From the NCBI GenBank assembly GCA_044892525.1, contig CM097886.1, positions 88,102,001 through 88,166,000 on the forward strand: a DNA stretch of 64,000 nucleotides. Direction: 5' to 3'. The notes under the pieces were generated by a model. That model saw only the letters and a program-made list of their open reading frames with translations. It was not told where the DNA came from and made no database searches. How positions within the stretch are numbered: the stretch's first letter is position 1; each line of letters opens with the position of its first letter. Below, piece after piece: positions 5,840-49,443 of the stretch. The stretch comes from Schmidtea polychroa (lineage: Eukaryota). The position numbers and the translations under genes were made by a program.

Positions 5840-5912
5840 GCCTCGATAGCGCAGTAGGTAGCGCGTCAGTCTCATAATCTGAAGGTCGTGAGTTCGATCC
5901 TCACTCGGGGCA
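5840..5912 (+). tRNA. tRNA-Met(CAT)
   Basis: Consensus copy. Confidence 0.96.
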
Positions 5913-6045
5913 TAATGTTTTGGATTTTTTCAAAAATTTTCAATTTTGCTATTCTTAGTTCTACAAAGCAATTCGTTTTCAAAACCCAACTTTTCTACAT
6001 CATTTCGACAATAAATCATCAATATTTTGACTTGAATAAAATAAA

Positions 6046-8583
6046 ATGACTAACGGAGAAAACAAGATGATGCAATCGCCTGACGCAATGCATCAACAAG
6101 ATATGCACACTGGAGTTCAATCAACGACTGCAGAAGGATTATGTAATTATGCAATTGATATGAAGAAACTTCAGAAATTATTCCAATATCAATTGCAATC
6201 AAATCAAGCTCTTTTGGATTTCTTCAGTCAATTCAAAGCTGGATTTCATATGCCTTCCATGGAGAATTCAATGAACAATGTCCTTCCAAACAAGCCGGAA
6301 AATCAGTTTCAGAATTTCGAGAAACGTTTGGATTTAATGGAGATTTCATTCTCAAAGAAGCTTGAAAGGTTAGAGTGTTTATCTTTGAATTTTGGGGGTT
6401 TCTTTAATAATTTAAATAATTTCAATAAATTTTCTTTAAATAAAGATTTTTTCCATTTTAAAGATAATAAAATTAATGAAATTTCAAATTTAGATAATTG
6501 TAATTTTAATAATTCATCAATTGTCAATAAGGATTTTAATATAGAGTTTGATAAATTTCCTTTAAATAAAAATTCTTGTAATGTTAATAATTCAACTTCT
6601 GATAAAAATCTCAATATTAATGTGAATAACGATTTAAATAAGGATAGTGCAAATTTCGATAATTTTAAAATTTCAATAAATAATAATACACGTTTTGACA
6701 ATCCTAAAGTGTTTGTTTCCAAACCGATAATAAGTAATAAAAGTTTTGATTTTAAGACTTTTATTCGTATTTTAACAAAAAAAGAGCGAAAACAGCTCTA
6801 TAATAAGTTTCCAACTTTGATTCCTTTAACTAAAATTAAGGAATCAAAGAATAAATATTTAAAATTAAATAAAGTTTTATCTGGGGAGGAATTTAATACC
6901 AATCCTTTAGGTTTAGATAATTTTAAATGTTTTCTTTATAGGAATTTTAATTTCTGTGTTGAGTTTCATATAAGTAGTTTTTTAAATGAAAACTCAACCG
7001 TTAAACCTGTCTCTTATAAAAAGAAAATTTTTTTGTCTGAACATAATATTGTAAAGACTTTTCCTAATTTTTCTAATTATATAGCAGCACCAACTTCAAT
7101 TAAAAGATTTTTATTTAATCTTTCGCCTGAGCTTTCTGAAACAGTTTCTATTACAGATTGTAATCATAGAGAAAATAAAATTAATAAAATCATTTCTTCT
7201 TTGATTAAACAAGATAAACTCCCAAATTATCTGGTAAAATCAAAAATTAAATATCAAAAGGGTGAGTTTATATTGTTAGATTTGACAAACCCAAATATAA
7301 CATCCAAGATAAATAACGATTTCACATCATCAACATTTTCCGAACTCTCTCGTACCCAGATGAAATCTCTCTACTCATCTTATCCTTCTCTTAAAGAGAT
7401 TATGTTTGTTGAGAATCCTGACTCAAAATCATCTTCAATTATTAAGTTGATTGAATCTTTAAAAATCGATAATGTGTTTCCTGAAGATATCTTTTTTGAA
7501 GGGGGTAAATTCTTTCAATCTGATATTAAACACAAAGAACCCAATTCATTTCCTGACATAATGTTTAATCTTGGGTTATTTGATCTAATAAACATGGCAA
7601 AAGATGATGTTGAATTAAAATCAATTTTGACTAAAACAGATTGTCACTTTAAAATTGTTGAGATAGTATTTTATCTAAATTACTTGGGTTTGGTTGGATC
7701 CTTAAAATTTTCTCAAAATCAAACTTATTCTGATTATGTTGTGAACTATATTCGAAATTGTTGTTTATTAAATTCACTCTGTTCGCTTGAAGATCTTTCT
7801 CTTCTCTCGCTTGAAAATTTTGAAAGTTGGGCTTCTGAAATTATTCAAAGGATTCCAAACTCGTCTTTTTATTATACAAATTGTCAAGAAAAACTCTTGA
7901 AATTAAAACAATGGAAAATTTCTGGGGAAATTAAAAAGATCCATAACGTAATATCTCCAGAAACTATAGCATGTGTTAATAGTTTTCTTGATCTTGTTGA
8001 CGAAACCTTTCCCAATAAATTTCAAAACAATAATATCCTTACTAAATTAATGGAAACAATTAATAATGAGAAATTAATAGATGACACATATGGCGTTAAA
8101 GCGAAGCGATTTATTTATTTTTTGTTGAGAGATACAAAGAAATTGATGGATAAAAACCAGAAATTCCGTCTGTTTGAAACAAGTAATAAATATTGCACTC
8201 CAGAGATGTGCCAGCAAATTTCTCTAATAATAACTAAATTAAAATTAATTGTTAACCAAATCAATGTAAAAGAAACAGCCGAAACCAATTGCGATATTGA
8301 CAATCCAACTACCAACAATGATGTTTTGGACCCTATCGTTGTCATAGAAGAAATCAACTGTATGAAATGTAATAACATCCTTGAAAAATTCATTTTGGCC
8401 AGAGAAGGAATGAATGTTAACATTTGTGAAAACTGTTTATTTGACGCCATTTCCACTGATCAATCAAATTCTAGTCAAGTCAATCCAATCCCTACAGAGA
8501 CTATTGAAGAACCTCTCACAAAGAAATCTGCTACAAAATCGCGAGCTACGACACTAAAAAAACAATCATCGAAGACCAAATGA
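6046..8583 (+). CDS. ORF1, 845 aa, unknown function (coiled-coil-like N-term, Asn-rich tract, C4 finger, basic tail)
   Basis: 2.5-kb open frame in very AT-rich DNA, conserved across copies; C772-x2-C-x18-C-x2-C797. Confidence 0.88.
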   Translation: MTNGENKMMQSPDAMHQQDMHTGVQSTTAEGLCNYAIDMKKLQKLFQYQLQSNQALLDFFSQFKAGFHMPSMENSMNNVLPNKPENQFQNFEKRLDLMEISFSKKLERLECLSLNFGGFFNNLNNFNKFSLNKDFFHFKDNKINEISNLDNCNFNNSSIVNKDFNIEFDKFPLNKNSCNVNNSTSDKNLNINVNNDLNKDSANFDNFKISINNNTRFDNPKVFVSKPIISNKSFDFKTFIRILTKKERKQLYNKFPTLIPLTKIKESKNKYLKLNKVLSGEEFNTNPLGLDNFKCFLYRNFNFCVEFHISSFLNENSTVKPVSYKKKIFLSEHNIVKTFPNFSNYIAAPTSIKRFLFNLSPELSETVSITDCNHRENKINKIISSLIKQDKLPNYLVKSKIKYQKGEFILLDLTNPNITSKINNDFTSSTFSELSRTQMKSLYSSYPSLKEIMFVENPDSKSSSIIKLIESLKIDNVFPEDIFFEGGKFFQSDIKHKEPNSFPDIMFNLGLFDLINMAKDDVELKSILTKTDCHFKIVEIVFYLNYLGLVGSLKFSQNQTYSDYVVNYIRNCCLLNSLCSLEDLSLLSLENFESWASEIIQRIPNSSFYYTNCQEKLLKLKQWKISGEIKKIHNVISPETIACVNSFLDLVDETFPNKFQNNNILTKLMETINNEKLIDDTYGVKAKRFIYFLLRDTKKLMDKNQKFRLFETSNKYCTPEMCQQISLIITKLKLIVNQINVKETAETNCDIDNPTTNNDVLDPIVVIEEINCMKCNNILEKFILAREGMNVNICENCLFDAISTDQSNSSQVNPIPTETIEEPLTKKSATKSRATTLKKQSSKTK

Positions 8584-11500
8584 AGATGTGTGCCTGCATC
8601 AGCTCAAGCGTCTGCCGTTCCCTCTAATGAGACTGATGCAGAGAGCACAATAGATAATTACTATTTACCAATTGACGATTTTGATAGTGAAATGTGGTTC
8701 TCTGATAATGATATTGATTGGTATCTTGAAAACCATATCGACAATCCAATGCATGGATACATCAAGTGTTTCATCGTTAATATTCTATGCTCGAATATTC
8801 AAGAAGAAATTGTTGCAATTCCACAGTCAATTACCAATGCTGAAATGATTTTTTGTCCACTTAATATAAACAATTCCCATTGGATTCTTTTTGTATACTG
8901 TAAGAAATCGAATTCATCTTACTTTATTGATCCAATTTTTAATAACAGAAATAATCTAATCAACAAACAAATGGCTCTTAAAATGAATATTGCACTAAAT
9001 AGATTTTTCAACCTCAAGATAGCAGTGTCATATCATCCGCATACAAATCTTCAATATCAAAATAACAATTTTGACTGTGGTCCATTCACTTGCGCTTATG
9101 CAGTGATAATCAGTAAAGATTGGAACAGCTTTCCTGATGGATTCATTGAAGAAATAAGACGAAATGTTCATCGATATCAGAAACACTTGGTTAATGGTTC
9201 ACCAAATTTAATTGGAGGTGCTAAAAACAATTTAAATATGGCAACAATCAATTTCAAGAAGGCTATCACTAAATCTAAAACTACAAATAATAATTTAAAC
9301 ATTACTAAAATTCTCAACAACCAAGCGCCATGTGTGTCATCACTAATTGGTAAATATTATAAAGAGAATTCTAAAATCTTGGTTTTATCTGCCAATTTAA
9401 CATCCAATTTAATTGCGCAAAATGACTCTTTTATAGCCGACAATGTCACCTTTAAACAATTTAAAGGAATCGATCACATTCTTGGTGTCATTCCAAAATT
9501 TAAAGATTGGTGTCTTTTCATATACTCCAGTAAGCTTAACCGTAGCTACATTTTTGATTTTAATTATAGAAATATTGATGAGAGATTGATTGAAATTGGT
9601 GAAAAGATGACCGATTATCTCAATCAATTTTGTCTTAATCGAAAAATTAAATTCATAGCTGATCATCGAATCTCGCATCCTTCCTTTCACTCTAATGACA
9701 ATCAATACTTTGCAAGTTCCTTTATTGTGTTTTTTGAGAAATTTGTCTTTGAAAGACTCTTGGATTATGATAAAGTATATGATACACTTGGTGAATTAAA
9801 ATCTCAGTCGTGCATTGAAATTTCTCCCAACTTTAATTTAATCAACGGTAAAATAACTGATAAAATTATTAATGAATATTTTATGAACCTAAAATTATCG
9901 AATAATTATATTCTCCTAAACAGAACTTTGTCTGCTGCAATTTCAGATGATTGTACTCAATACTTAAATGATTTTTTAAACATTGAGGACATGATGAAGG
10001 CAAATGTAATCTTTGCAATAATTTCTCCTCCCAAGGCCCATGAATTGCTGTTGGTAATTGATTACGACACAGACGAACATTATTTTCTTAGTCCAGTGAC
10101 CAATGATTTGAATGTGTTTTCTAAAGCTTTCTCTTATAACATTGTGCTCAAAATTAATGAGCTAAGACAAAGTAAAGGGCGTTCAATGACAATTGGCCAC
10201 TGCCCACATGATATAAGAGGTTCTGGTTTATTTAGCAAAATATTAATTTGTGCATTTATCAGAAACTACACTCAAGATAAATCTCTTGAAAATATTAACT
10301 TGACTGAAATTTCTGAAATAATCAACTCTCTAGTTCCAATAGTTGATAATAATGACATTGTCAAAATTGAGAGACGTGGAAAATTGAAAATTGCTAATTC
10401 TTTGAAACTAACTTTGAAGCAACGCAAAGATAGAATTGATGAGCTTTTAACTACATTGTCTAACTCTAATGTTGATGAAATTATCTCTACTATTCTGGCA
10501 AATATTCCTCATCTAGAAAATTTGCAGGATCAAGAATTTCGAGAGCCATATCTTGGGAAAAATCACAATAAACCTAAAAAATTCAACAATTCTACTGAAT
10601 TTCTGAAAAATATGAAAAAGACTGTAAACAGAATTTTAGGTAATCAGAGCGAAAAAGCTGAACCACCATTTCAGGAAATTATAAACACTTTCACTCATCA
10701 AGATACTTTACCTGGAAGTTGGAACAACGTTTTAAACTTTAGTAAAATCTCGAAAAGCTTACTTGAATTAGAAATTACTACGCCAATGGAAATTCTTTCC
10801 AATCTTCAGGAAGCTGATAATTCTACGCCCGGACTTGATAATGTATATTATAAAGATCTTCTGTTACTTGATCCAGATTGTAAGCTTCTAGCGTTACTTT
10901 TCAACAAAGTCATTCAACTGAAATCTATCCCTACAAGTTGGAAAACTTTTAAAACAATATTAATTCCGAAACCTGATAAAAATGACCAATACCATAAAAT
11001 ATCTTCATGGCGACCAATCGCATTACTGTCAGTGATTTACAAAGTTTTCGCTTCAGTTCTTGCAACTCGTCTTAGTTCATGGATTAAAGAAAATAATCTG
11101 CTGCATATTGGCCAAAAGGGTGGTTCAGAATACGAAGGATGTATTGAACACAACTCAATTCTCTCTGCGATTGTCGAGCATTCAAAATATAGTAAATCTT
11201 CACCTTTAGCAATAGCATGGCTTGACATCAAAGACGCTTTCGGAAGTGTTCCACACGAATACATGTGGACATTGTTAAGACATATGAACGTTGGTGAAAA
11301 CTTTGTGAATATCCTGAAATTACTTTATACAGATACGAGCTCTTTTTATCGCTGTAACAAAATGCAGACACCAAATATTCCAATAAAGAAAGGTGTAAAA
11401 CAAGGCTGCCCGATCTCTATGATTCTGTTTGCAATAGCTATTAATCCGGTTCTTGAAGCTATTACCGCATCTAACATTACACCTTTTATGATAGGCTCTT

Positions 11501-13534
11501 CTCAAGTACAAGTGTTAGCTTATGCTGATGACATTGCACTTATTGCAACTAGCTCAACTGACCTCCAAAAGCTAATTGGCGTAGCTGTAAAAACTGCCAA
11601 TAATATTGGATTTGAATATCGCCCTGAAAAATGTGCATATATACAATACCCAAAACTAGAAACGGTCAGTGAAATCGTTGTCAACAATGATTTAATTAAA
11701 AAACTTGCTGGTAATGAATTTTACCAATACTTAGGAGTGCCAATAGGTGATAATAATGATCAAAGTCCCTATGAAATCGTCAGCCAAGTCATTGAAGATA
11801 CTAAAAAGATTGCTAACTCTGATCTCTATGGTTGGCAAAAGCTCAAAGCTTATAAAATCTTCCTGCATTCGCGCCTTATTTTCCCATTTAGAACTAGGGA
11901 AATTAAAACTAGTTCATTAACATCTCCTAGTAGTAACTCAAGGATAAATGTAAATAGTACTAGCCAATTGAGGAGCCATTTGAGGAAAATATTAAATTTA
12001 CCAAACCACTCTGAAATAAGTTATTTCTATAATGCCACTGAAAATGGTGGAGCTGGCTGTATTGACCTTCTTGATGAGTATCACACACAGTCGATTGTTT
12101 ACTTCTTCCGTTTACTAACATCAACTTGCGACTATTCAAAAAAGATAAACACTTTTTCACTCTTGTCTGTGACAAGTCCAAGACTCGGAATCAAAGAACC
12201 AACTCTCAGTCAAAGCTTGGAATGGGTTAATGGAAAAGAAAGCAAATTAAATCATAGTGGTAGTAAAACTCGCTTCTACCGATTGCGTGCATCAATTGCA
12301 TATTTCAATCGAGTTCACAACATTAAAATTTCGTTCGAAACTTTCAAACAAAATCCTTCGATTCGGCTCACTACTTCATTAACTGGCACTCGCATATTAT
12401 TACCAAAATTAAGAAAAGCATTATCAAAGATTCTCCATTCTGCTCTTCAAGATTCGTATCTCGAAAAGTGGGAGAAGAGTAATCAAAGTAATCTAATTGT
12501 ATCTGCTCTCAAACTTTGTCCATTTGTCAACAAACTAATCTTTCGTAGTGACTTGACAGACTTTGAATGGAATTTCATTCATCGAGCTCGAACAAATACA
12601 CTCTCTACATTTGCAAAGCCACATAAAACTGGCGAAGACCGCCTTTGTCGTAGGTGTAAATCTGAAGATGAGACAATTTTACATGTACTCCAAACTTGTA
12701 GAATCAATCAATCATTAGCAACTAATCGACATAATGCTTGCTTGGAAAAAATTAAAGATGCACTTAAAAATCCTGAACTCTTGGTTGTCACTGATCATAA
12801 ATGTTCTCTTGTACCGACTTCCAACGAACGGGTTGATCTTTTAATAACCAATACCGAGAGAAAAACGATTTTACTAGTAGACATGAAATGTCCAATTGAT
12901 TCTGTAATTAATTTTGAGCGAGTCGACAAATTAAATATGGAAAAATATGATAAATTAAAAACAGATATACAAACAGTTAAACCTGATTACAAAGTTGAAT
13001 TGTTCACATGCATCATGGGTTCCTTGGGATCAATTGAACCAAAAACTTCTGATCTTTTATTAAAAATGGGAATTCCACAAACAAAAATCAAAGGTTTGAT
13101 GAAGGAATGTGCAATAAGTAACATTGCACATTCGGCAAAGATTTGGTATTTTCATTGTAATGGAAAGCTTCCAAACTTTGAATAATTAAAATAAATTGGT
13201 TTTCAACATAGGAAAATAATTAAATTTAAAACTTTTATTAATTTGATTATTAAAACAAACTAAATTTAAATTTCATTAAAAAAAATAAACTAATTATTAA
13301 AGAAACTTTCATTTTTTCGAGATAAATATTCTGCGACAAAGCAAATTTAAGAATTTAGATCTTCAATCTACCAAAGACAAGTCGCAATGCCGGATGATGA
13401 AATCCGATGAGAGTGATCAGAGATTCCAGCAGATGAAGTTAATATGTGAATATTTGCTTATGGACAACTCCATGTAGAGCTGATTATCTGTTAAAAACAA
13501 TATTCAAATTTGTTATATTTAATAAATGTTTAAT
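6050..13534 (+). mobile_element. Retrotransposon copy 2, full length (7485 bp), both ORFs intact
   Basis: Sequence diverges from the spacer after ATGA 6046-6049 and rejoins tRNA nt 20 at 13535. Confidence 0.95.
8590..13185 (+). CDS. ORF2 protease-RT-RLE (1531 aa), copy 2
   Basis: Same motifs as copy 1; in frame with ORF1 after TGA 8581-8583. Confidence 0.95.
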   Translation: MPASAQASAVPSNETDAESTIDNYYLPIDDFDSEMWFSDNDIDWYLENHIDNPMHGYIKCFIVNILCSNIQEEIVAIPQSITNAEMIFCPLNINNSHWILFVYCKKSNSSYFIDPIFNNRNNLINKQMALKMNIALNRFFNLKIAVSYHPHTNLQYQNNNFDCGPFTCAYAVIISKDWNSFPDGFIEEIRRNVHRYQKHLVNGSPNLIGGAKNNLNMATINFKKAITKSKTTNNNLNITKILNNQAPCVSSLIGKYYKENSKILVLSANLTSNLIAQNDSFIADNVTFKQFKGIDHILGVIPKFKDWCLFIYSSKLNRSYIFDFNYRNIDERLIEIGEKMTDYLNQFCLNRKIKFIADHRISHPSFHSNDNQYFASSFIVFFEKFVFERLLDYDKVYDTLGELKSQSCIEISPNFNLINGKITDKIINEYFMNLKLSNNYILLNRTLSAAISDDCTQYLNDFLNIEDMMKANVIFAIISPPKAHELLLVIDYDTDEHYFLSPVTNDLNVFSKAFSYNIVLKINELRQSKGRSMTIGHCPHDIRGSGLFSKILICAFIRNYTQDKSLENINLTEISEIINSLVPIVDNNDIVKIERRGKLKIANSLKLTLKQRKDRIDELLTTLSNSNVDEIISTILANIPHLENLQDQEFREPYLGKNHNKPKKFNNSTEFLKNMKKTVNRILGNQSEKAEPPFQEIINTFTHQDTLPGSWNNVLNFSKISKSLLELEITTPMEILSNLQEADNSTPGLDNVYYKDLLLLDPDCKLLALLFNKVIQLKSIPTSWKTFKTILIPKPDKNDQYHKISSWRPIALLSVIYKVFASVLATRLSSWIKENNLLHIGQKGGSEYEGCIEHNSILSAIVEHSKYSKSSPLAIAWLDIKDAFGSVPHEYMWTLLRHMNVGENFVNILKLLYTDTSSFYRCNKMQTPNIPIKKGVKQGCPISMILFAIAINPVLEAITASNITPFMIGSSQVQVLAYADDIALIATSSTDLQKLIGVAVKTANNIGFEYRPEKCAYIQYPKLETVSEIVVNNDLIKKLAGNEFYQYLGVPIGDNNDQSPYEIVSQVIEDTKKIANSDLYGWQKLKAYKIFLHSRLIFPFRTREIKTSSLTSPSSNSRINVNSTSQLRSHLRKILNLPNHSEISYFYNATENGGAGCIDLLDEYHTQSIVYFFRLLTSTCDYSKKINTFSLLSVTSPRLGIKEPTLSQSLEWVNGKESKLNHSGSKTRFYRLRASIAYFNRVHNIKISFETFKQNPSIRLTTSLTGTRILLPKLRKALSKILHSALQDSYLEKWEKSNQSNLIVSALKLCPFVNKLIFRSDLTDFEWNFIHRARTNTLSTFAKPHKTGEDRLCRRCKSEDETILHVLQTCRINQSLATNRHNACLEKIKDALKNPELLVVTDHKCSLVPTSNERVDLLITNTERKTILLVDMKCPIDSVINFERVDKLNMEKYDKLKTDIQTVKPDYKVELFTCIMGSLGSIEPKTSDLLLKMGIPQTKIKGLMKECAISNIAHSAKIWYFHCNGKLPNFE

Positions 13535-13588
13535 TAGCGCGTCAGTCTCATAATCTGAAGGTCGTGAGTTCGATCCTCACTCGGGGCA
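13535..13588 (+). pseudogene. 5'-truncated tRNA-Met (nt 20-73)
   Basis: Element 3' junction. Confidence 0.92.
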
Positions 13589-15161: not shown

Positions 15162-17698
15162 ATGACTAACGGAGAAAACAAGATGATGCAATCGCCTGAC
15201 GCAATGCATCAACAAGATATGCACACTGGAGTTCAATCAACGACTGCAGATGGATTATGTAATTATGCAATTGATATGAAGAAACTTCAGAAATTATTCC
15301 AATTTCAATTGCAATCAAATCAGGCTCTTTTGGATTTCTTCAGTCAATTCAAAGCTGGATTTAATATGCCTTCCATGGAGAATTCAATGAACAATGTCCT
15401 TCCAAACAAGCCGGAAAATCAGTTTCAGAATTTCGAGAAACGTTTGGATTTAATGGAGATTTCATTCTTAAAGATGCTTGAAAGGTTAGAGTGTTTATCT
15501 TTAAATTTTGAAAGTTTCTTTAATAATTTAAATAATTTTGATAAATTTTCTTTAAATAAAGATTTTTTCCATTTTAAAGATAATAAAATTAATGAAATTT
15601 TAATTTAGATAATTGTAATTTTAATAATTCATCAAATGTCAATAAGGATTTTAATATAGAGTTTGATAAATTTTCTTTAAATAAAAATTCTTGTAATGTT
15701 AATAATTCGCTTTCTGATAAAAATCTTAATATTAATGTGAATAACGATTTAAATAAGGATAGTCAAAATTTCGATAATATTAAAATTTCAATAAATAATA
15801 ATACACGTTTTGACAATCCTAAAGTGTTTGTTTCCCAACCGAAAATAAGTAATAAAAGTTTTGATTTTAAGACTTTTATTCGTATTTTAACAAAAAAAGA
15901 GCGAAAACAGCTCTATAATAAGTTTCCAACTTTGATTCCTTTAACTAAAATTAAGGAATCAAAGAATAAATATTTAAAATTAAATAAAATTTTATCTGGG
16001 GAGGAATTTAATGCCAATCCTTTAGGTTTAGATAATTTTAAATGTTTTTTTTATAGGAATTTTAATTTCTGTGTTGAGTTTCATTTAGATAGTTTTTTAA
16101 ATGTAAACTCAACCGTTAAACCTGTCTCTTATAAAAAGAAAATTTTTCTGTCTGAACATAATATTGTAAAGACTTATCCTAATTTTTCTAATTATATAGC
16201 AGCACCAACTTCAATTAAAAGATTTTTATTTAATCTTTCGCCTGAGCTTTCTGAAACAGTTTCTATTACAGACTGTAATCATAGAGAAAATAAAATTAAT
16301 AAAATTATTTCTTCGTTGATTAAACAAGATAAACTCCCAAATTATCTGGTTAAATCAAAAATTAAATATCAAAAGGGTGAGTTCATATTGTTAGATTTGA
16401 CAAACCCAAATATAACATCCAAGATAAATAACGATTTCACATCATCAACATTTTCCGAACTATCTCGTACCCAGATGAAAACTCTCTACTCATCTTATCC
16501 TTCTCTTAAAGAGATTATGTTTGTTGAAAATCCTGACTCAAAATCATCTTCAATTATTAAGTTGATTGAATCTTTAAAAATCGATAATGTGTTTCCTGAA
16601 GATATCTTTTTTGAAGGGGGTAAATTCTTTCAACCTGATATTAAACACAAAGAACCCAATTCATTTCCTGACATAATGTTTAATCTTGGGTTATTTGATC
16701 TAATAAACATGGAAAAAGATGATGTTGAATTAAAATCAATTTTGACTAAAACAGATTGTCACTTTAAAATTGTTGAGATAGTATTTTATCTAAATTACTT
16801 GGGTTTGGTTGGATCCTTAAAATTTTCTCAAAATCAAACTTATTCTGATTATGTTGTCAACTATATTCGAAATTGTTGTTTATTAAATTCACTCTGTTCG
16901 CTTGAAGATCTTTCTCTTCTCTCGCTTGAAAATTTTGAATGTTGGGCTTCTGAAATTATTCAAAGGATTCCAAACTCGTCTTTTTATTATACAAATTGTC
17001 AAGAAAAGCTCTTGAAATTAAAACAATGGAAAATTTCTGGGGAAATTAAAAAGATCCATAACGTAATTTCTCCAAAAACAATAGCATGTGTTAATAGTTT
17101 TCTTGATCTTGTTGACGAAACCTTTCCCAATAAATTTCAAAACAATAATATCCTTACTAAATTAATGGAAACAATTAATAATGAGAAATTAATAGATGAC
17201 ACATATGGCGTTAAAGCGAAGCGATTTATTTATTTTTTGTTGAGAGATACAAAGAAATTTAAGGATAAAAACCAGAAATTCCGTCTGTTTGAAACAAGCA
17301 ATAAATATTGCACTCCAGAGATGTGCCAGCAAATTTCTCTAATAATAACTAAATTAAAATTAATTGTTAACCAAATCAATGTAACAGAAACAGCCGAAAC
17401 CAATTGCGATATTGACAATCAAACTACCAACAGTAATGTTATGGACCCTATCGTTGTCATTGAAGAAATCAACTGTATGAAATGTAATAACATCCTTGAA
17501 AAATTCATTTTGGTCAGAGAAGGAATGAATGTTAACATTTGTGAAAACTGTTTATTTGACGCCATTTCCACTGATCAATCAAATTCTAGTCAAGTCAATC
17601 CAATCCCTACAGAGACTATTGAAGAACCTCTCACAAAGAAATCTGCTACAAAATCGCGAACTACGACACTAAAAAAACAATCATCGAAATCCAAATGA
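15162..17698 (+). pseudogene. ORF1 with 1-bp deletion at ~15601
   Basis: atttTAattt versus atttCAAattt in intact copies; split into 148-aa and 653-aa ORFs. Confidence 0.85.
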
Positions 17699-20600
17699 AG
17701 ATGTGTGCCTGCATCAGCTCAAGCGTCTGCCGTTCCCTTTAATGAGACTGATGCAGAGAGCACAATAGATAATTACTATTTAACAATTGACGATTTTGAT
17801 AGTGAAATGTGGTTCTCTGATAATGATATTGATTGGTATCTTGAAAACCATATCGACAATCCAATGCATGGATACATCAAGTGTTTCATCGTTAATATTC
17901 TATGCTCGAATATTCAAGAAGAAATTGTTGCAATTCCACAGTCAATTACCAATGCTGAAATGATTTTTTGTCCACTTAATATAAACAATTCCCATTGGAT
18001 TCTTTTTGTATACTGTAAGAAATCGAATTCATCTTACTTTATTGATCCAATTTTTAATAACAGAAATAATCTAATCAACAAACAAATGGCTCTTAAAATG
18101 AATATTGCACTAAATAGATTTTTCAACCTCAAGATAGCAGTGTCATATCATCCGCATACAAATCTTCAATATCAAAATAACAATTTTGACTGTGGTCCAT
18201 TCACTTGCGCTTATGCAGTGATAATCAGTAAAGATTGGAACAGCTTTCCTGATGGATTCATTGAAGAAATAAGACGAAATGTTCATCGATATCAGAAACA
18301 CTTGGTTAATGGTTCACCAAATTTAATTGGAGGTGCTAAAAACAATTTAGATATGGCAACAATCAATTTCAAGAAGGCTATCGCTAAATCTAAAACTACA
18401 AATAATAATTTAAACATTACTAAAGTTCTCAACAACCAAGCGCCATGTGTGTCATCACTAATTGATAAATATTATAAAGAGAATTCTAAAATCTTGGTTT
18501 TATCTGCCAATTTAACATCCAATTTAATTGCGCAAAATGACTCTTTTATAGCCGACAATGTCACCTTTAAACAATTTAAAGGAATCGATCACATTCTTGG
18601 TGTCATTCCAAAATTTAAAGATTGGTGTCTTTTCATATACTCCAGTAAGCTTAACCGTAGCTACATTTTTGATTTTAATTATAGAAATATTGATGAGAGA
18701 TTGATTGAAATTGGTGAAAAGATGACCGATTATCTCAATCAATTTTGTCTTAATCGAAAAATTAAATTCATAGCTGATCATCGAATCTCGCATCCTTCCT
18801 TTCACTCTAATGACAATCAATACTTTGCAAGTTCCTTTATTGTGTTTTTTGAGAAATTTGTCTTTGAAAGACTCTTGGATTATGATAAAGTATATGATAC
18901 ACTTGGTGAATTAAAATCTCAGTCGTGCATTGAAATTTCTCCCAACTTTAATTTAATCAACGGGAAAATAACTGATAAAATTATTAATGAATATTTTATG
19001 AACCTAAAATTATCGAATAATTATATTCTCCTAAACAGAACTTTGTCTGCTGCAATTTCAGATGATTGTACTCAATACTTAAATGATTTTTTAAACCTTG
19101 AGGACATGATGAAGGCAAATGTAATCTTTGCAATAATTTCTCCTCCCAAGGCCCATGAATTGCTGCTGGTAATTGATTACGACACAGACGAACATTATTT
19201 TCTTAGTCCAGTGACCAATGATTTGAATGTGTTTTCTCAAGCTTTCTCTTATAACATTGTGCTCAAAATTAATGAGCTACGACAAAGTAAAGGGCGTGCA
19301 ATGACAATTGGTCACTGCCCACATGATATAAGAGGTTCTGGTTTATTTAGCAAAATATTAATTTGTGCATTTATCAGAAACTACACTCAAGATAAATCTC
19401 TTGAAAATATTAACTTGACTGAAATTTCTGAAATAATCAACTCTCTAGTTCCAATGGTTGATAATAATGACATTGTCAAAATTGAGAGACGTGGAAAATT
19501 GAAAATTGCTAATTCTTTGAAACTAACTTTGAAGCAACGCAAAGATAGAATTGATGAGCTTTTAACTACATTGTCTAACTCTAATGTTGATGAAATTATT
19601 TCTACTATTCTGGCAAATATTCCTCATCTAGAAAATTTGCAGGATCAAGAATTTCGAGAGCCATATCTTGGGAAAAATCACAATAAACCTAAAAAATTCA
19701 ACAATTCTACTGAATTTCTGAAAAATATGAAAAAAACTGTAAACAGAATTCTAGGTAATCAGAGCGAAAAAGCTGAACCACCATTTCAGGAAATTATAAA
19801 CACTTTCACTCATCAAGATACTTTACCTGGAAGTTGGAACAACGTTTTAAACTTTAGTAAAATCTCGAAAAGCTTACTTGAATTAGAAATTACTACGCCA
19901 ATGGAAATTCTTTCCAATCTTCAGGAAGCTGATAATTCTACGCCGGGACTTGATAATGTATATTATAAAGATCTTCTGTTACTCGATCCAGATTGTAAGC
20001 TTCTAGCGTTACTTTTCAACAAAATCATTCAACTGAAATCTATCCCTACAAGTTGGAAAACTTTTAAAACAATATTAATTCCGAAACCTGATAAAAATGA
20101 CCAATACCATAAAGTATCTTCATGGCGACCAATCGCATTACTGTCAGTGATTTACAAAGTTTTCGCTTCAGTTCTTGCAACTCGTCTTAGTTTATGGATT
20201 AAAGAAAATAATCTGCTGCATATTGGCCAAAAGGGTGGCTCAGAATACGAAGGATGTATTGAACACAACTCAATTCTCTCTGCGATTGTCGAGCATTCAA
20301 AATATAGTAAATCTTCACCTTTAGCAATAGCCTGGCTTGACATCAAAGACGCTTTCGGAAGTGTTCCACACGAATACATGTGGACATTGTTAAGACATAT
20401 GAACGTTGGTGAAAACTTTGTGAATATCCTGAAATTACTTTATACAGATACGAGCTCGTTTTATCGCTGCAACAAAATGCAGACACCGAATATTCCAATT
20501 AAGAAAGGTGTAACACAAGGTTGCCCGATCTCTATGATTCTGTTTGCAATAGCTATTAATCCGGTTCTTGAAGCTATTACCGCATCTAACATTACACCTT

Positions 20601-22648
20601 TTATGATAGGCTCTTCTCAAGTACAAGTGTTAGCTTATGCTGATGACATTGCACTTATTGCAACTAGCTCAACTGACCTCCAAAAGCTAATTGATGTAGC
20701 TGTAAAAACTGCCAATAATATTGGATTTGAATATCGCCCTGAAAAATGTGCATATATACAATACCCAAAACTAGAAACGGTCAGTGAAATCGTTGTCAAC
20801 AATGATTTAATTAAAAAACTTGCTGGTAATGAATTTTACCAATACTTAGGAGTGCCAATAGGTGATAATAATGATCAAAGTCCCTATGAAATCGTCAGCC
20901 AAGTCATTGAAGATACTAAAAAGATTGCAAACTCTGATCTCTATGGTTGGCAAAAGCTCAAAGCTTATAAAATCTTCCTGCATTCGCGCCTTATTTTCCC
21001 ATTTAGAACTAGGGAAATTAAAACTAGTTCATTAACAGCTCCTAGTAGTAACTCAAGGATAAATGTAAATAGTACTAGCCAATTGAGGAGCCATTTGAGG
21101 AAAATATTAAATTTACCAAACCACTCTGAAATAAGTTATTTCTATAATGCCACTGAAAATGGTGGAGCTGGCTGTATTGACCTTCTTGATGAGTATCACA
21201 CACAGTCGATTGTTTACTTTTTCCGTTTACTAACATCAACTTGCGACTACTCAAAAAAGATAAACACTTTTTCACTCTTGTCTGTGACAAGTCCAAGACT
21301 CGGAATCAAAGAACCAACTCTCAGTCAAAGCTTGGAATGGGTTAATGGAAAAGAAAGCAAATTAAATCATGGTGGTAGTAAAACTCGCTTCTACCGATTG
21401 CGTGCATCAATTGCATATTTCAATCGAGTTCACAACATTAAAATTTCGTTCGAAACTTTCAAACAAAATCCTTCGATTCGACTCACTACTTCATTAACTG
21501 GCACTCGCATATTATTACCAAAATTAAGAAAAGCATTATCAAAGATTCTCCATTCTGCTCTTCAAGATTCGTATCTCGAAAAGTGGGAGAAAAGTAATCA
21601 AAGTAATCTAATTGTGTCTGCTCTCAAACTTTGTCCATTTGTCAACAAACTAATTTTCCGTAGTGACTTGACAGACTTTGAATGGAATTTCATTCATCGA
21701 GCTCGAACAAATACACTCTCTACATTTGCTAAGCCACATAAAACTGGCGAAGACCGCCTTTGTCGTAGATGTAAATCTGAAGATGAGACAATTTTACATG
21801 TACTCCAAACTTGTAGAATCAATCAATCATTAGCAACTAATCGACATAATGCTTGCTTAGAAAAAATTAAAGATGTGCTTAAAAATCCTGAACTCTTGGT
21901 TGTCACTGATCACAAATGTTCTCTTGTACCAAATTCCAACGAACGGGTTGATCTTTTAATAACAAATACCGAGAAAAAGACGATTCTGCTAGTAGACATG
22001 AAATGTCCAATTGATTCTGTAATTAATTTTGAGCGAGTCGACAAATTAAATATGGAAAAATATGATAAATTAAAATCAGATATACAAACAGTTAAACCTG
22101 ATTACAAGGTTGAATTGTTTACATGCATCATGGGTTCCTTGGGATCAATTGAACCAAAAACTTCTGATCTTTTATTAAAAATGGGAATTCCACAAACAAA
22201 AATCAAAGGTTTGATGAAGGAATGCGCAATAAGTAACATTGCACACTCGGCAAAGATTTGGTATTTTCATTGTAATGGAAAGCTTCCAAATTTTGCATAA
22301 TTAAAATAAATTGGTTTTCAACTTAAATAAATAATTAAATTTAAAACTTTTATTAATTTGATTATTTAAACAAACTAAATTTATATTTCATTAAAAAAAT
22401 AAACTAATTATTAGAGAAACTTTCATTTTTTTGAGATAAATATTCTGCGACAGAGCAAATTTATTAATTTAGAACTTCAATCTACCAAAGACAAGTCGCA
22501 ATGCCGGATAATGAAATCCGATAAAATTGATCAGAGATTCCAGCAGATGAAGCAAATATGTGAATATTTGCTTATGGACAACTCCATGTAGAGCTGATTA
22601 TCTGTTAAAAACAATATTCAAATTTGTTATATTTAATAAATGTTTTAT
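15166..22648 (+). mobile_element. Retrotransposon copy 3, full length, most divergent variant; ORF1 frameshifted
   Basis: Same junctions; many private or shared substitutions (e.g. C-terminus PNFA). Confidence 0.95.
17705..22300 (+). CDS. ORF2 protease-RT-RLE (1531 aa), copy 3
   Basis: Intact frame and motifs (GVTQGCP variant). Confidence 0.95.
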   Translation: MPASAQASAVPFNETDAESTIDNYYLTIDDFDSEMWFSDNDIDWYLENHIDNPMHGYIKCFIVNILCSNIQEEIVAIPQSITNAEMIFCPLNINNSHWILFVYCKKSNSSYFIDPIFNNRNNLINKQMALKMNIALNRFFNLKIAVSYHPHTNLQYQNNNFDCGPFTCAYAVIISKDWNSFPDGFIEEIRRNVHRYQKHLVNGSPNLIGGAKNNLDMATINFKKAIAKSKTTNNNLNITKVLNNQAPCVSSLIDKYYKENSKILVLSANLTSNLIAQNDSFIADNVTFKQFKGIDHILGVIPKFKDWCLFIYSSKLNRSYIFDFNYRNIDERLIEIGEKMTDYLNQFCLNRKIKFIADHRISHPSFHSNDNQYFASSFIVFFEKFVFERLLDYDKVYDTLGELKSQSCIEISPNFNLINGKITDKIINEYFMNLKLSNNYILLNRTLSAAISDDCTQYLNDFLNLEDMMKANVIFAIISPPKAHELLLVIDYDTDEHYFLSPVTNDLNVFSQAFSYNIVLKINELRQSKGRAMTIGHCPHDIRGSGLFSKILICAFIRNYTQDKSLENINLTEISEIINSLVPMVDNNDIVKIERRGKLKIANSLKLTLKQRKDRIDELLTTLSNSNVDEIISTILANIPHLENLQDQEFREPYLGKNHNKPKKFNNSTEFLKNMKKTVNRILGNQSEKAEPPFQEIINTFTHQDTLPGSWNNVLNFSKISKSLLELEITTPMEILSNLQEADNSTPGLDNVYYKDLLLLDPDCKLLALLFNKIIQLKSIPTSWKTFKTILIPKPDKNDQYHKVSSWRPIALLSVIYKVFASVLATRLSLWIKENNLLHIGQKGGSEYEGCIEHNSILSAIVEHSKYSKSSPLAIAWLDIKDAFGSVPHEYMWTLLRHMNVGENFVNILKLLYTDTSSFYRCNKMQTPNIPIKKGVTQGCPISMILFAIAINPVLEAITASNITPFMIGSSQVQVLAYADDIALIATSSTDLQKLIDVAVKTANNIGFEYRPEKCAYIQYPKLETVSEIVVNNDLIKKLAGNEFYQYLGVPIGDNNDQSPYEIVSQVIEDTKKIANSDLYGWQKLKAYKIFLHSRLIFPFRTREIKTSSLTAPSSNSRINVNSTSQLRSHLRKILNLPNHSEISYFYNATENGGAGCIDLLDEYHTQSIVYFFRLLTSTCDYSKKINTFSLLSVTSPRLGIKEPTLSQSLEWVNGKESKLNHGGSKTRFYRLRASIAYFNRVHNIKISFETFKQNPSIRLTTSLTGTRILLPKLRKALSKILHSALQDSYLEKWEKSNQSNLIVSALKLCPFVNKLIFRSDLTDFEWNFIHRARTNTLSTFAKPHKTGEDRLCRRCKSEDETILHVLQTCRINQSLATNRHNACLEKIKDVLKNPELLVVTDHKCSLVPNSNERVDLLITNTEKKTILLVDMKCPIDSVINFERVDKLNMEKYDKLKSDIQTVKPDYKVELFTCIMGSLGSIEPKTSDLLLKMGIPQTKIKGLMKECAISNIAHSAKIWYFHCNGKLPNFA

Positions 22649-22702
22649 TAGCGCGTCAGTCTCATAATCTGAAGGTCGTGAGTTCGATCCTCACTCGGGG
22701 CA
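22649..22702 (+). pseudogene. 5'-truncated tRNA-Met (nt 20-73)
   Basis: Element 3' junction. Confidence 0.92.
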
Positions 22703-23317: not shown

Positions 23318-25855
23318 ATGACTAACGAAGAAAACAAGATGATGCAATCGCCTTATGCAATGCATCAACAAGATATGCACACTGGAGTTCAATCAACGAC
23401 TGCAGAAGGATTATGTAATTATGCAATTGATATGAAGAAACTTCAGAAATTATTCCAATTTCAATTGCAATCAAATCAGGCTCTTTTGGATTTCTTCAGT
23501 CAATTCAAAGCTGGATTTAATATGCCTTCCATGGAGAATTCAATGAACAATGTCCTTCCAAACAAGCCGGAAAATCAGTTTCAGAATTTCGAGAAACGTT
23601 TGGATTTAATGGAGATTTCATTCTCAAAGATGCTTGAAAGGTTAGAGTGTTTATCTTTAAATTTTGAGAGTTTCTTTAATAATTTAAATAATTTTGATAA
23701 ATTTTCTTTAAATAAAGATTTTTTCCATTTTAAAGATAATAAAATTAATGAAATTTCAAATTTAGATAATTGTAATTTTAATAATTCATCAAATGTCAAT
23801 AAGGATTTTAATATAGAGTTTGATAAATTTCCTTTAAATAAAAATTCTTGTAATGTTAATAATTCGCTTTCTGATAAAAATCTTAATATTAATGTGAATA
23901 ACGATTTAAATAAGGATAGTCAAAATTTCGATAATATTAAAATTTCAATAAATAATAATACACGTTTTGACAATCCTAAAGTGTTGGTTTCCAAACCGAA
24001 AATAAGTAATAAAAGTTTTGATTTTAAGACTTTTATTCGTATTTTAACAAAAAAAGAGCGAAAACAGCTCTATGATAAGTTTCCAACTTTGATTCCTTTA
24101 ACTAAAATTAAGGAATCAAAGAATAAATATTTAAAATTAAATAAATTTTTATCTGGGGAGGAATTTAATGCCAATCCTATAGGCTTAGATAATTTTAAAT
24201 GTTTTTTTTATAGGAATTTTAATTTCTGTGTTGAGTTTTATATAGATAGTTTTTTAAATGAAAACTCAACCGTTAAACCTGTCTCTTATAAAAAGAAACT
24301 TTTTCTGTCTGAACATAATATTGTAAAGACTTTTCCTAATTTTTCTAATTATATAGCAGCACCAACTGCAATTAAAAGATTTTTATTTAACCTTTCGCCT
24401 GAGCTTTCTGAAACAGTTTCTATTACAGACTGTAATCATAGAGAAAATAAAATTAATAAAATCATTTCTTCTTTGATTAAACAAGAAAAGCTCCCAAATT
24501 ATTTGGTTAAATCAAAAATTAAATATCAAAAGGGTGAGTTTATATTGTTAGATTTGACAAACCCAAATATAACATCCAAGATAAATAACGATTTCACATC
24601 ATCAACATTTTCCGAACTATCTCGTACCCAGATGAAAACTCTCTACTCATCTTATCCTTCTCTTAAAGAGATTATGTTTGTTGAGAATCCTGACTCAAAA
24701 TCATCTTCAATTATTAAGTTGATTGAATCTTTAAAAATCGATAATGTGTTTCCTGAAGATATCTTTTTTGAAGGGGGTAAATTCTTTCAATCTGATATTA
24801 AACACAAAGAACCCAATTCATTTCCTGACATAATGTTTAATCTTGGGTTATTTGATCTAATAAACATGGCAAAAGATGATGTTGAATTAAAATCAATTTT
24901 GACTAAAACAGATTGTCACTTTAAAATTGTTGAGATAGTATTTTATCTAAATTACTTGGGTTTGGTTGGATCCTTAAAATTTTCTCAAAATCAAACTTAT
25001 TCTGATTATGTTGTGAACTATATTCGAAATTGTTGTTTATTAAATTCACTCTGTTCGCTTGAAGATCTTTCTCTTCTCTCACTTGAAAATTTTGAATGTT
25101 GGGCTTCTGAAATTATTCAAAGGATTCCAAACTCGTCTTTTTATTATACAAATTGTCAAGAAAAACTCTTGAAATTAAAACAATGGAAAATTTCTGGGGA
25201 AATTAAAAAGATCCATAACGTAATTTCTCCAGAAACAATAGCATGTGTTAATAGTTTTCTTGATCTTGTTGACGAAACCTTTCCCAATAAATTTCAAAAC
25301 AATAATATCCTTACTAAATTAATGGAAACAATTAATAATGAGAAATTAATAGATGACACATATGGCGTTAAAGCGAAGCGATTTATTTATTTTTTGTTGA
25401 GAGATACAAAGAAATTTAAGGATAAAAACCAGAAATTCCGTCTGTTTGAAACAAGCAATAAATATTGCACTCCAGAGATGTGCCAGCAAATTTCTCTAAT
25501 AATAACTAAATTAAAATTAATTGTTAACCAAATCAATGTAACAGAAACAGCCGAAACCAATTGCGATATTGACAATCAAACTACCAACAGTAATGTTATG
25601 GACCCTATCGTTGTCATTGAAGAAATCAACTGTATGAAATGTAATAACATCCTTGAAAAATTCATTTTGGTCAGAGAAGGAATGAATGTTAACATTTGTG
25701 AAAACTGTTTATTTGACGCCATTTCCACTGATCAATCAAATTCTAGTCAAGTCAATCCAATCCCTACAGAGACTATTGAAGAACCTCTCACAAAGAAATC
25801 TGGTACAAAATCGCGAACTACGACACTAAAAAAACAATCATCGAAATCCAAATGA
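23318..25855 (+). CDS. ORF1, 845 aa, copy 4
   Basis: Intact frame. Confidence 0.88.
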   Translation: MTNEENKMMQSPYAMHQQDMHTGVQSTTAEGLCNYAIDMKKLQKLFQFQLQSNQALLDFFSQFKAGFNMPSMENSMNNVLPNKPENQFQNFEKRLDLMEISFSKMLERLECLSLNFESFFNNLNNFDKFSLNKDFFHFKDNKINEISNLDNCNFNNSSNVNKDFNIEFDKFPLNKNSCNVNNSLSDKNLNINVNNDLNKDSQNFDNIKISINNNTRFDNPKVLVSKPKISNKSFDFKTFIRILTKKERKQLYDKFPTLIPLTKIKESKNKYLKLNKFLSGEEFNANPIGLDNFKCFFYRNFNFCVEFYIDSFLNENSTVKPVSYKKKLFLSEHNIVKTFPNFSNYIAAPTAIKRFLFNLSPELSETVSITDCNHRENKINKIISSLIKQEKLPNYLVKSKIKYQKGEFILLDLTNPNITSKINNDFTSSTFSELSRTQMKTLYSSYPSLKEIMFVENPDSKSSSIIKLIESLKIDNVFPEDIFFEGGKFFQSDIKHKEPNSFPDIMFNLGLFDLINMAKDDVELKSILTKTDCHFKIVEIVFYLNYLGLVGSLKFSQNQTYSDYVVNYIRNCCLLNSLCSLEDLSLLSLENFECWASEIIQRIPNSSFYYTNCQEKLLKLKQWKISGEIKKIHNVISPETIACVNSFLDLVDETFPNKFQNNNILTKLMETINNEKLIDDTYGVKAKRFIYFLLRDTKKFKDKNQKFRLFETSNKYCTPEMCQQISLIITKLKLIVNQINVTETAETNCDIDNQTTNSNVMDPIVVIEEINCMKCNNILEKFILVREGMNVNICENCLFDAISTDQSNSSQVNPIPTETIEEPLTKKSGTKSRTTTLKKQSSKSK

Positions 25856-28800
25856 AGATGTGTGCCTGCATCAGCTCAAGCGTCTGCCGTTCCCTTTAAT
25901 GAGACTGATGCAGAGAGCACAATAGATAATTACTATTTAACAATTGACGATTTTGATAGTGAAATGTGGTTCTCTGATAATGATATTGATTGGTATCTTG
26001 AAAACCATATCGACAATCCAATGCATGGATACATCAAGTGTTTCATCGTTAATATTCTATGCTCGAATATTCAAGAAGAAATTGTTGCAATTCCACAGTC
26101 AATTACCAATGCTGAAATGATTTTTTGTCCACTTAATATAAACAATTCCCATTGGATTCTTTTTGTATACTGTAAGAAATCGAATTCATCTTACTTTATT
26201 GATCCAATTTTTAATAACAGAAATAATCTAATCAACAAACAAATGGCTCTTAAAATGAATATTGCACTAAATAGATTTTTCAACCTCAAGATAGCAGTGT
26301 CATATCATCCGCATACAAATCTTCAATATCAAAATAACAATTTTGACTGTGGTCCATTCACTTGCGCTTATGCAGTGATAATCAGTAAAGATTGGAACAG
26401 CTTTCCTGATGGATTCATTGAAGAAATAAGACGAAATGTTCATCGATATCAGAAACACTTGGTTAATGGTTCACCAAATTTAATTGGAGGTGCTAAAAAC
26501 AATTTAGATATGGCAACAATCAATTTCAAGAAGGCTATCGCTAAATCTAAAACTACAAATAATAATTTAAACATTACTAAAGTTCTCAACAACCAAGCGC
26601 CATGTGTGTCATCACTAATTGATAAATATTATAAAGAGAATTCTAAAATCTTGGTTTTATCTGCCAATTTAACATCCAATTTAATTGCGCAAAATGACTC
26701 TTTTATAGCCGACAATGTCACCTTTAAACAATTTAAAGGAATCGATAACATTCTTGGTGTCATTCCAAAATTTAAAGATTGGTGTCTTTTCATATACTCC
26801 AGTAAGCTTAACCGTAGCTACATTTTTGATTTTAATTATAGAAATATTGATGAGAGATTGATTGAAATTGGTGAAAAGATGACCGATTATCTCAATCAAT
26901 TTTGTCTTAATCGAAAAATTAAATTCATAGCTGATCATCGAATCTCGCATCCTTCCTTTCACTCTAATGACAATCAATACTTTGCAAGTTCCTTTATTGT
27001 GTTTTTTGAGAAATTTGTCTTTGAAAGACTCTTGGATTATGATAAAGTATATGATACACTTGGTGAATTAAAATCTCAGTCGTGCATTGAAATTTCTCCC
27101 AACTTTAATTTAATCAACGGTAAAATAACTGATAAAATTATTAATGAATATTTTATGAACCTAAAATTATCGAATAATTATATTCTCCTAAACAGAACTT
27201 TGTCTGCTGCAATTTCAGATGATTGTACTCAATACTTAAATGATTTTTTAAACATTGAGGACATGATGAAGGCAAATGTAATCTTTGCAATAATTTCTCC
27301 TCCCAAGGCCCATGAATTGCTGTTGGTAATTGATTACGACACAGACGAACATTATTTTCTTAGTCCAGTGACCAATGATTTGAATGTGTTTTCTAAAGCT
27401 TTCTCTTATAACATTGTGCTCAAAATTAATGAGCTAAGACAAAGTAAAGGGCGTTCAATGACAATTGGCCACTGCCCACATGATATAAGAGGTTCTGGTT
27501 TATTTAGCAAAATATTAATTTGTGCATTTATCAGAAACTACACTCAAGATAAATCTCTTGAAAATATTAACTTGACTGAAATTTCTGAAATAATCAACTC
27601 TCTAGTTCCAATAGTTGATAATAATGACATTGTCAAAATTGAGAGACGTGGAAAATTGAAAATTGCTAATTCTTTGAAACTAACTTTGAAGCAACGCAAA
27701 GATAGAATTGATGAGCTTTTAACTACATTGTCTAACTCTAATGTTGATGAAATTATCTCTACTATTCTGGCAAATATTCCTCATCTAGAAAATTTGCAGG
27801 ATCAAGAATTTCGAGAGCCATATCTTGGGAAAAATCACAATAAACCTAAAAAATTCAACAATTCTACTGAATTTCTGAAAAATATGAAAAAGACTGTAAA
27901 CAGAATTTTAGGTAATCAGAGCGAAAAAGCTGAACCACCATTTCAGGAAATTATAAACACTTTCACTCATCAAGATACTTTACCTGGAAGTTGGAACAAC
28001 GTTTTAAACTTTAGTAAAATCTCGAAAAGCTTACTTGAATTAGAAATTACTACGCCAATGGAAATTCTTTCCAATCTTCAGGAAGCTGATAATTCTACGC
28101 CCGGACTTGATAATGTATATTATAAAGATCTTCTGTTACTTGATCCAGATTGTAAGCTTCTAGCGTTACTTTTCAACAAAGTCATTCAACTGAAATCTAT
28201 CCCTACAAGTTGGAAAACTTTTAAAACAATATTAATTCCGAAACCTGATAAAAATGACCAATACCATAAAATATCTTCATGGCGACCAATCGCATTACTG
28301 TCAGTGATTTACAAAGTTTTCGCTTCAGTTCTTGCAACTCGTCTTAGTTCATGGATTAAAGAAAATAATCTGCTGCATATTGGCCAAAAGGGTGGTTCAG
28401 AATACGAAGGATGTATTGAACACAACTCAATTCTCTCTGCGATTGTCGAGCATTCAAAATATAGTAAATCTTCACCTTTAGCAATAGCATGGCTTGACAT
28501 CAAAGACGCTTTCGGAAGTGTTCCACACGAATACATGTGGACATTGTTAAGACATATGAACGTTGGTGAAAACTTTGTGAATATCCTGAAATTACTTTAT
28601 ACAGATACGAGCTCTTTTTATCGCTGTAACAAAATGCAGACACCAAATATTCCAATAAAGAAAGGTGTAAAACAAGGCTGCCCGATCTCTATGATTCTGT
28701 TTGCAATAGCTATTAATCCGGTTCTTGAAGCTATTACCGCATCTAACATTACACCTTTTATGATAGGCTCTTCTCAAGTACAAGTGTTAGCTTATGCTGA

Positions 28801-30804: not shown

Positions 30805-30858
30805 TAGCGCGTCAGTCTCATAATCTGAAGGTCGTGAGTTCGATCCTCACTCGGGGCA
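30805..30858 (+). pseudogene. 5'-truncated tRNA-Met (nt 20-73)
   Basis: Element 3' junction. Confidence 0.92.
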
Positions 30859-41582: not shown

Positions 41583-41636
41583 TAGCGCGTCAGTCTCATA
41601 ATCTGAAGGTTGTGAGTTCGATCCTCACTCGGGGCA
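41583..41636 (+). pseudogene. 5'-truncated tRNA-Met (nt 20-73, C48T); only tRNA remnant between copies 5 and 6
   Basis: The interval 41583-41773 is only 191 bp (half tRNA plus partial spacer). Confidence 0.92.
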
Positions 41637-41769
41637 TAATGTTTTGGATTTTTTCAAAAATTTTCAATTTTGCTATTCTTAGTTCTACAAAGCAATTCGT
41701 TTTCAAAACCCAACTTTTCTACATCATTTCGACAATAAATCATCAATATTTTGACTTGAATAAAATAAA

Positions 41770-49256: not shown

Positions 49257-49310
49257 TAGCGCGTCAGTCTCATAATCTGAAGGTTGTGAGTTCGATCCTC
49301 ACTCGGGGCA
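49257..49310 (+). pseudogene. 5'-truncated tRNA-Met (nt 20-73, C48T); only tRNA remnant between copies 6 and 7
   Basis: The interval 49257-49447 is only 191 bp. Confidence 0.92.
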
Positions 49311-49443
49311 TAATGTTTTGGATTTTTTCAAAAATTTTCAATTTTGCTATTCTTAGTTCTACAAAGCAATTCGTTTTCAAAACCCAACTTTTCTACATCA
49401 TTTCGACAATAAATCATCAATATTTTGACTTGAATAAAATAAA

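Follow-up and report, generated by a model that had tools for sequence, protein, structure and literature searches.

The tRNA-Met array and its insertions

The window, by which we mean the whole stretch of 64,000 nucleotides from Schmidtea polychroa analysed here, consists of tRNA-Met(CAT) genes repeated in tandem, in units of 241 or 235 bp, and is interrupted by copies of a 7.49-kb element. Of its 36 tRNA 3' parts, 29 belong to full genes and 7 lack nt 1-19, each of these seven directly adjoining the 3' end of an element; the units that bear an element measure 7674-7676 bp. Around copy 2, the following features were recorded:

5840..5912, + strand: intact tRNA-Met(CAT) gene (ARAGORN) in the unit upstream of the insertion; to judge from leader SNPs that track the local array, a resident neighbour and not a rebuilt gene
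5913..6045, + strand: host spacer, whose last ~10-50 nt would ride on the element RNA, as spacer stubs at foreign sites suggest
6043..6049, + strand: 5' junction with the 7-nt microhomology AAAATGA, common to the Met spacer and to the Asn-junction form of the element
6046..13535, + strand: non-LTR retrotransposon copy 2, 7490 bp, from the ORF1 ATG to an element-derived T at tRNA nt 20
6046..8583, + strand: ORF1, 845 aa, closed by a single TGA behind which ORF2 continues in frame
8584..13185, + strand: ORF2, 1533 aa, with Ulp1-like protease, RT, CCHC knuckle and RVD...D-x-K nuclease motif (Pfam and motif reading)
13186..13535, + strand: 3' UTR without poly(A), ending in ...ATGTTTAATT
13536..13588, + strand: target remnant, tRNA-Met nt 21-73, of a gene destroyed by the insertion (junction reading)

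Further copies follow downstream:

15162..22649, + strand: copy 3, ORF1 broken, an Asn-type 5' haplotype with a Met junction
23318..30805, + strand: copy 4, both ORFs intact
34095..41583, + strand: copy 5
41770..49257, + strand: copy 6, recombinant
49444..56931, + strand: copy 7
58564..64000, + strand: copy 8, extending beyond the window, with an internal deletion and no intact 3' end

It may be added that the C2 Met array contains 27 units with a 12-bp D-arm deletion between TAGCGC repeats, and that three of its elements have such a D-arm-deleted, broken gene upstream.

Structure and class of the element

The two ORFs are separated in frame by one TGA (window 8581-8583) and no ATG lies near the start of ORF2, an arrangement which suggests that ORF2 is reached by read-through of the stop codon. 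No Pfam family scored above the cut-off in ORF1. In ORF2, an N-terminal Ulp1-like protease (PF02902, E 1.5e-9, aa 82-179) precedes a reverse transcriptase (PF00078, E 8e-30, aa 794-1053, with YADD), after which a CCHC knuckle (CRRC...H....C, aa 1355-1372) and a PD-(D/E)xK-like nuclease motif (RVDL...DMK, aa 1416-1435) were identified in the sequence; from the form of the motif only, we take the latter to be a restriction-like nuclease. Both ORFs are intact in 41 of the 59 aligned copies. Full-length copies start at the ORF1 ATG, and the element seems to lack a 5' UTR of its own; when both element ends were scanned with Rfam, the matches, taken up to E 5, included no ribozyme, a search that may miss divergent ones, and no Rfam match was found for the 3' UTR.

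A motif of this 3' UTR, GCCGGA-N-TCCGATGA at window ~13390-13410, is common to a second family described below and, on inspection by eye, also occurs in a third element, which lies upstream of L097; it is possibly a conserved RNA hairpin. The 3' end of that third element (L097 ~1050-1130, minus strand) abuts, by eye, the anticodon loop of a tRNA-Thr-like fragment. None of the 12 proteins closest to those of the element (40-61%) carries a family name. The NeSL-clade layout is described in PMC4640811, where NeSL-1 and Utopia-1_TSP have an N-terminal Ulp1-like protease, and on this domain layout the element would be classed as a NeSL/LIN-type RLE non-LTR retrotransposon.

Junctions within the Met array

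At each of the seven 5' ends that the window contains, element and spacer meet at ...AATAAAATAAAATGA|CTAAC, and the same standard junction is found at 32 of the 35 full-length 5' ends of the C2 Met array. The initial annotation had described this geometry as a deficit of 50 bp per inserted unit or, equivalently, as a 191-bp direct repeat flanking each element; both descriptions are real for all seven copies and the arithmetic is correct. AAAATGA occurs once in the 241-bp Met unit and includes the ORF1 ATG (6046). As the 5' junction lies inside this microhomology, 50 bp is a net figure, and the target loss amounts to 51-58 bp according to how the common bases are assigned.

On the 3' side, the insertion point had been placed at G19|T20. 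In iMet targets, GG-A-AG is turned into T-AG at insertion; the T that had been taken for tRNA nt 20 hence comes from the element and the nick lies at nt 20|21, one position further on. Among the matches listed, every 3' junction in an array agrees with a nick after GGN, 1 nt beyond the GG of the D-loop.

Insertions elsewhere in the genome

Pattern searches of the whole genome returned 84 full-length 5' ends (100 with a looser pattern) and 106 element 3' ends, 100 of which are among the matches listed. Beyond Met arrays, the element lies in tRNA-Asn, Arg, iMet, Cys, Ile and His arrays and in tRNA-like units. At several of the latter (L162-L166, L169, L171-L173, L098), insertions are found at the A-box, and these units resemble the target of Polinton-4_SM in S6 Fig of PMC4640811.

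The change of target sequence at the 5' junction ranges from duplications of 17-38 bp to losses of 0-238 bp. All 14 copies of the C3 Asn array have one common junction with a loss of 75 bp. Losses of 88 bp (Ile), 225 bp (His), 226 and 238 bp (iMet) and 0 bp (Arg) occur in other arrays, together with duplications of 19 bp (Cys) and of 17-20 and 37-38 bp (Arg), and in the Met unit itself other insertions have lost 20 bp (two copies), 103 bp (C179) or, in a 5'-truncated copy, ~111 bp. The 5' junction, uniform inside each array but different from one array to the next, is a property of array and lineage.

Nearly identical elements make the same point. Between copy 1, to the left of copy 2, and a copy in an Asn array of another chromosome, a single nucleotide differs in 7.49 kb, and each of the two has the junction and the leader of its own array. 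Over its first 1000 columns copy 2 is identical to two Asn-array copies and to copy 1, yet the Met leaders of copies 1 and 2 differ at two sites. Given that leaders differ between elements with an identical 5' part, the 191 bp does not travel with the element.

Spacer stubs at foreign sites

In nine independent foreign junction types, and in one non-canonical case, the ORF1 ATG is preceded by spacer of a donor array. These stubs are 11-50 nt long, most often 16-21. Asn spacer was found as stubs of 16 nt (Cys), 17 nt (Ile), 17, 19 and 44 nt (Met arrays), 48-50 and 21 nt (iMet) and 19 nt (a unique site), and Met spacer as a stub at a His site that is AT-rich and only 11 nt long. The non-canonical case is a 3'-truncated piece (L097) with 33 nt of Met spacer, which we down-weighted on account of its truncation and of a 34-38-bp flanking duplication and which may be a capture during DNA repair. 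Three junctions carry at most 1 nt. Twenty stretches were read in one series, from which we left out of the count four guessed 5' ends without an element match (L189-L192); also left out were six copies that start at element positions 3-208 within ambiguous flanks (L177, L187, L188, L193-L195) and one with an unassigned 19-nt stub (L186).

Among the foreign-site leaders examined, none contains tRNA sequence and none exceeds 50 nt of spacer. A 61-nt Asn leader gave 33 matches genome-wide, all 33 inside Asn arrays; the 21-nt Met junction gave 37, of which 36 are in Met arrays and the remaining one carries 33 nt. Six copies of the Arg array retain the target as far as GGA, followed by a 44-nt stub of Arg spacer and then by the element; they are joined bluntly at the nick with the array's own leader, and the tRNA stays broken. 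The Met-spacer stubs of 11 and 33 nt and the Asn-spacer stubs of 16-50 nt, all at foreign sites, are the basis on which the end of the spacer at 5913..6045 is assigned to the element RNA. The proposal of the initial annotation that element RNA carries upstream host spacer, an R2-like co-transcript explaining the precision of the junctions, is thus supported by what foreign sites contain, whereas its element-borne 191-bp copy rebuilding the tRNA is not what arrives there: what the element imports amounts to 11-50 nt of spacer, with no tRNA 3' part.

The second family, whose ORF2 is 54% identical to that of the element, has inserted between tRNA nt 4 and 5 of a unit in the C2 Met array (G000:C2:87801055-87808851, L109-L110); nt 4|5 is also the site of LIN25_SM (PMC4640811, S6 Fig). 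Over the whole genome 43 of its 5' ends were counted, with Ser, Val and Phe arrays among its targets, and it has a 5' segment of its own of ~47 nt. The pattern of the element recurs in it: in the 16 5' ends that were read, stubs measure ~33 nt, a putative 55 nt and, stacked, 66-76 + 40 nt, with no tRNA sequence. As the stacked donor-spacer stubs (L204, L208, L209) reach 160 nt before the ATG, leaders can exceed 50 nt.

Duplication and shuffling as DNA

The 59 aligned copies, compared at 239 informative columns, are made up of blocks that recur in mosaic fashion in arrays of different chromosomes. Truncation at the 5' end is rare: of the 36 3' ends in the C2 Met array, 2 belong to copies so shortened. 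Recombination of cDNA with resident elements could account for both the mosaics and this rarity. Whole runs of neighbouring units are repeated around elements. The variant 83T occurs in 11 of 32 leaders and in 15 of 461 other units; the unit before an 83T leader carries 217C in 10 of 11 cases and the unit after it is short in 7 of 11. Flanks shared on both sides of an element are the result of duplication of DNA, possibly in part a duplication in the assembly. In two places (G000:C2:87977182 and ~88087000; L104, L155), the Met array is inverted with its breakpoint exactly at the 5' junction of an element, in one case full-length with an Asn stub and in the other truncated, as if cDNA had joined an inverted unit.

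Several observations had been offered in favour of an element-borne leader. The bias towards long leaders holds within the window (0 of 7 leaders short, against 7 of 29 other spacers); array-wide, with 0 of 32 against 51 of 461 other units, Fisher's test gives p 0.063 for copies that are not independent. The ATTTG variant is indeed present in the leaders of copies 3 and 4, but also in 40 of 461 other units and in the neighbours of both copies. When leader SNPs were compared with element and neighbours, as had been recommended, they followed the local array, with a linkage that reaches into both flanks. There remain the two bare intervals between copies 5, 6 and 7:

41583..41773, + strand: first bare 191-bp interval
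49257..49447, + strand: bare 191-bp interval, duplicate of the first, both with the 29T variant

In its 5' part, which ends at column 1779 for this purpose, copy 6 tracks copy 7 at 22 of 23 sites; in its 3' part, from column 3431, it tracks copy 5 at 12 of 13. Copy 6 being recombinant, one bare interval was doubled by a single unequal crossover, and the Asn array also holds one, so that these intervals lose their value as support for an element-borne leader.

A model for the junctions

Taken together, these data are best explained, and probably correctly, by the annealing of short leaders combined with an unequal exchange that multiplies copies. The element RNA would start ~15-50 nt upstream, in host spacer, and after target-primed reverse transcription the end of the cDNA would be complementary to this spacer leader. 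In the home array, the cDNA end would anneal to the identical spacer upstream of the nick and the DNA between would be lost, which would reproduce the founder junction exactly (50/51 bp in Met, 75 bp in Asn). In a foreign array, the cDNA would be joined through microhomology, or else where the top strand is cut downstream (~+19), and a stub would remain. The Met junction itself would most likely have originated when cDNA of the Asn-junction form paired at the single AAAATGA of the Met spacer, an event that can recur. Unequal exchange would then multiply the copies. That copies and their flanks are also duplicated and rearranged at the DNA level is seen in the sequence itself, and of the 32 Met junctions many are such duplicates and should not be counted as separate insertions. 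With each insertion one tRNA gene is lost, the intact gene upstream being the resident neighbour. Against a short leader stand the enrichment of 83T, which would also be expected from a long one, the small size of the AT-rich His stub, the doubtful origin of the 33-nt Met stub and the stacked stubs of up to 160 nt in the second family.

Another reading of the Met array, a top strand cut by the endonuclease at a fixed 50 bp upstream of the nick, agrees with the same loss in 32 of 35 full-length C2 Met-array copies; we nevertheless regard it as scarcely credible, for the Met unit elsewhere loses 20, 103 or 111 bp, and other arrays lose 0, 75, 88, 225, 226 or 238 bp or duplicate 17-38 bp. As the change is array-specific or variable, there is no fixed cut at -50, and the fixed 50-bp deletion of the initial annotation is abandoned with it. 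Its other model, in which an RNA with tRNA nt 20-73 and 137 bp of spacer rebuilds the upstream gene, predicts the same sequence inside the Met array, and a top-strand cut ~19 nt downstream of the nick would even provide a tRNA overhang for pairing; the lack of short leaders (0/32 against 51/461, p 0.063) and the 83T enrichment also speak for it. Outside the home array, however, the foreign insertions examined carry no tRNA sequence and at most 50 nt of spacer, none of the 33 Asn 61-nt leaders lies outside Asn arrays, and the blunt Arg insertions leave the gene broken; within it, copies 1 and 2, alike over their first 1000 columns, differ at two leader sites, and leader linkage extends into both flanks. 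Pol III read-through from the tRNA would moreover be unlikely, given the TTTT behind the tRNA and the 70 runs of at least four T in the element. We consider this restoration very improbable. A narrower version deserves mention, in which some home-array RNAs begin in or above the upstream tRNA and a top-strand cut downstream leaves a tRNA overhang of 19 nt with which the cDNA pairs, so that the gene is rebuilt much as an integrase restores an attB site, though by a retrotransposon. In the Met array such rebuilding would leave no trace; the only argument against it is its absence at foreign sites, and we grant it a slight chance.

The strongest competitor holds that one or a few founder Met insertions were multiplied only at the DNA level, by unequal crossover, conversion or new cDNA replacing resident elements, leader annealing being minor inside the array. 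The mosaic structure of the elements, the common neighbour units on both sides of 83T leaders, the crossover origin of copy 6 and the mere two 5'-truncated copies behind 36 C2 Met-array 3' ends are what it would predict. Against it, the stubs demonstrate that leaders exist, near-identical copies sit in different arrays each with that array's junction, and 41 of 59 copies with both ORFs intact are expected from recent retrotransposition, so that we hold it unlikely. It had been thought that sequence alone could not decide between the models; that of the whole genome could.

Should this reading be correct, the co-transcribed-leader model of second-strand priming would extend from the rDNA elements R1 and R2 to a NeSL/LIN element in at least seven unrelated tRNA arrays. 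Since spacers differ from array to array, a stub identifies its donor like a barcode, and the stubs provide natural tests of homologous versus non-homologous joining in one genome; leader length, direction of the hop and top-strand cut site can be read from them directly. A harmless, gene-restoring insertion is not demonstrated by the junctions of the element, and the apparent absence of a 5' UTR of its own raises the question of where its RNA starts.

Comparison with known systems

Integrative elements that restore a tRNA gene use an integrase and an attB site within the tRNA, supplying the displaced part so that the gene is restored. That feature is wanting here, where the foreign-site leaders examined are devoid of tRNA sequence and the blunt Arg insertions stay unrestored.

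Among retrotransposons, there is a close likeness to LIN15_SM and LIN25_SM of the planarian R5/LIN lineage (NeSL clade), which also target tRNA genes and whose 3' end is rich in AT and lacks poly(A). For LIN15_SM, insertions into four types of tRNA-Arg are recorded, and at the one 5' boundary that is illustrated, tRNA sequence from downstream is duplicated (PMC4640811, S6 Fig). The target site and the tRNA-Arg(TCT) gene of the element resemble those in the same figure, in which the D-arm boundary lies 2-3 nt further than the nick at 20|21; compared over the 3'-terminal 26 nt only, the two elements are similar, not identical. Unlike LIN15_SM, the element targets Met, Asn, Arg, iMet, Cys, Ile and His genes and tRNA-like units, and its array-specific junctions and donor stubs are not shown for LIN15_SM or LIN25_SM in the part of PMC4640811 considered here. 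The literature searched, Repbase reports and subscription papers being outside its scope, gives no account of array-specific junctions for LIN elements. Oomycete Utopia, of the NeSL clade with a U2 target, forms arrays without a 5' gene fragment and with an intact gene upstream; the authors were unable to define its deletion (PMC4640811), whereas that of the element is resolved here.

The mechanism itself has precedents. R1A of the melanogaster type makes a precise 9-bp target deletion, ascribed to an upstream cut, and at foreign sites it carries 7-28 bp of upstream 28S sequence and leaves duplication-plus-stub junctions from a downstream cut (PMC2718515). The uniform home junction, the upstream target carried abroad and the duplication with a stub, as in the Cys insertion, are common to both; R1A has an APE nuclease and one 28S target, whereas the element has an RLE, many arrays, losses of 50-238 bp and leaders of unrelated spacer. 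For R2 elements whose RNA is cleaved upstream, within 28S sequence, upstream host sequence in the RNA has been proposed to anneal and so to propagate aberrant founder junctions, such as the 7-bp deletion of springtails and the 2-3-bp deletion of silkmoths, failed annealing giving direct duplications (PMC3774820). R2 RNA is part of a Pol I co-transcript, from which an HDV-like ribozyme cuts its 5' end; the element gave no ribozyme match in Rfam. With a uniform junction at home and upstream target sequence carried abroad, the element works like an upstream-cleaving R2 or the melanogaster R1A, being a member of neither. Leader annealing is, on this analysis, a mechanism already known from R1 and R2; what appears to be new is the clade in which it is met, the many unrelated arrays, the sizes of the losses, an ATG placed directly on host spacer and stubs that record the donor.
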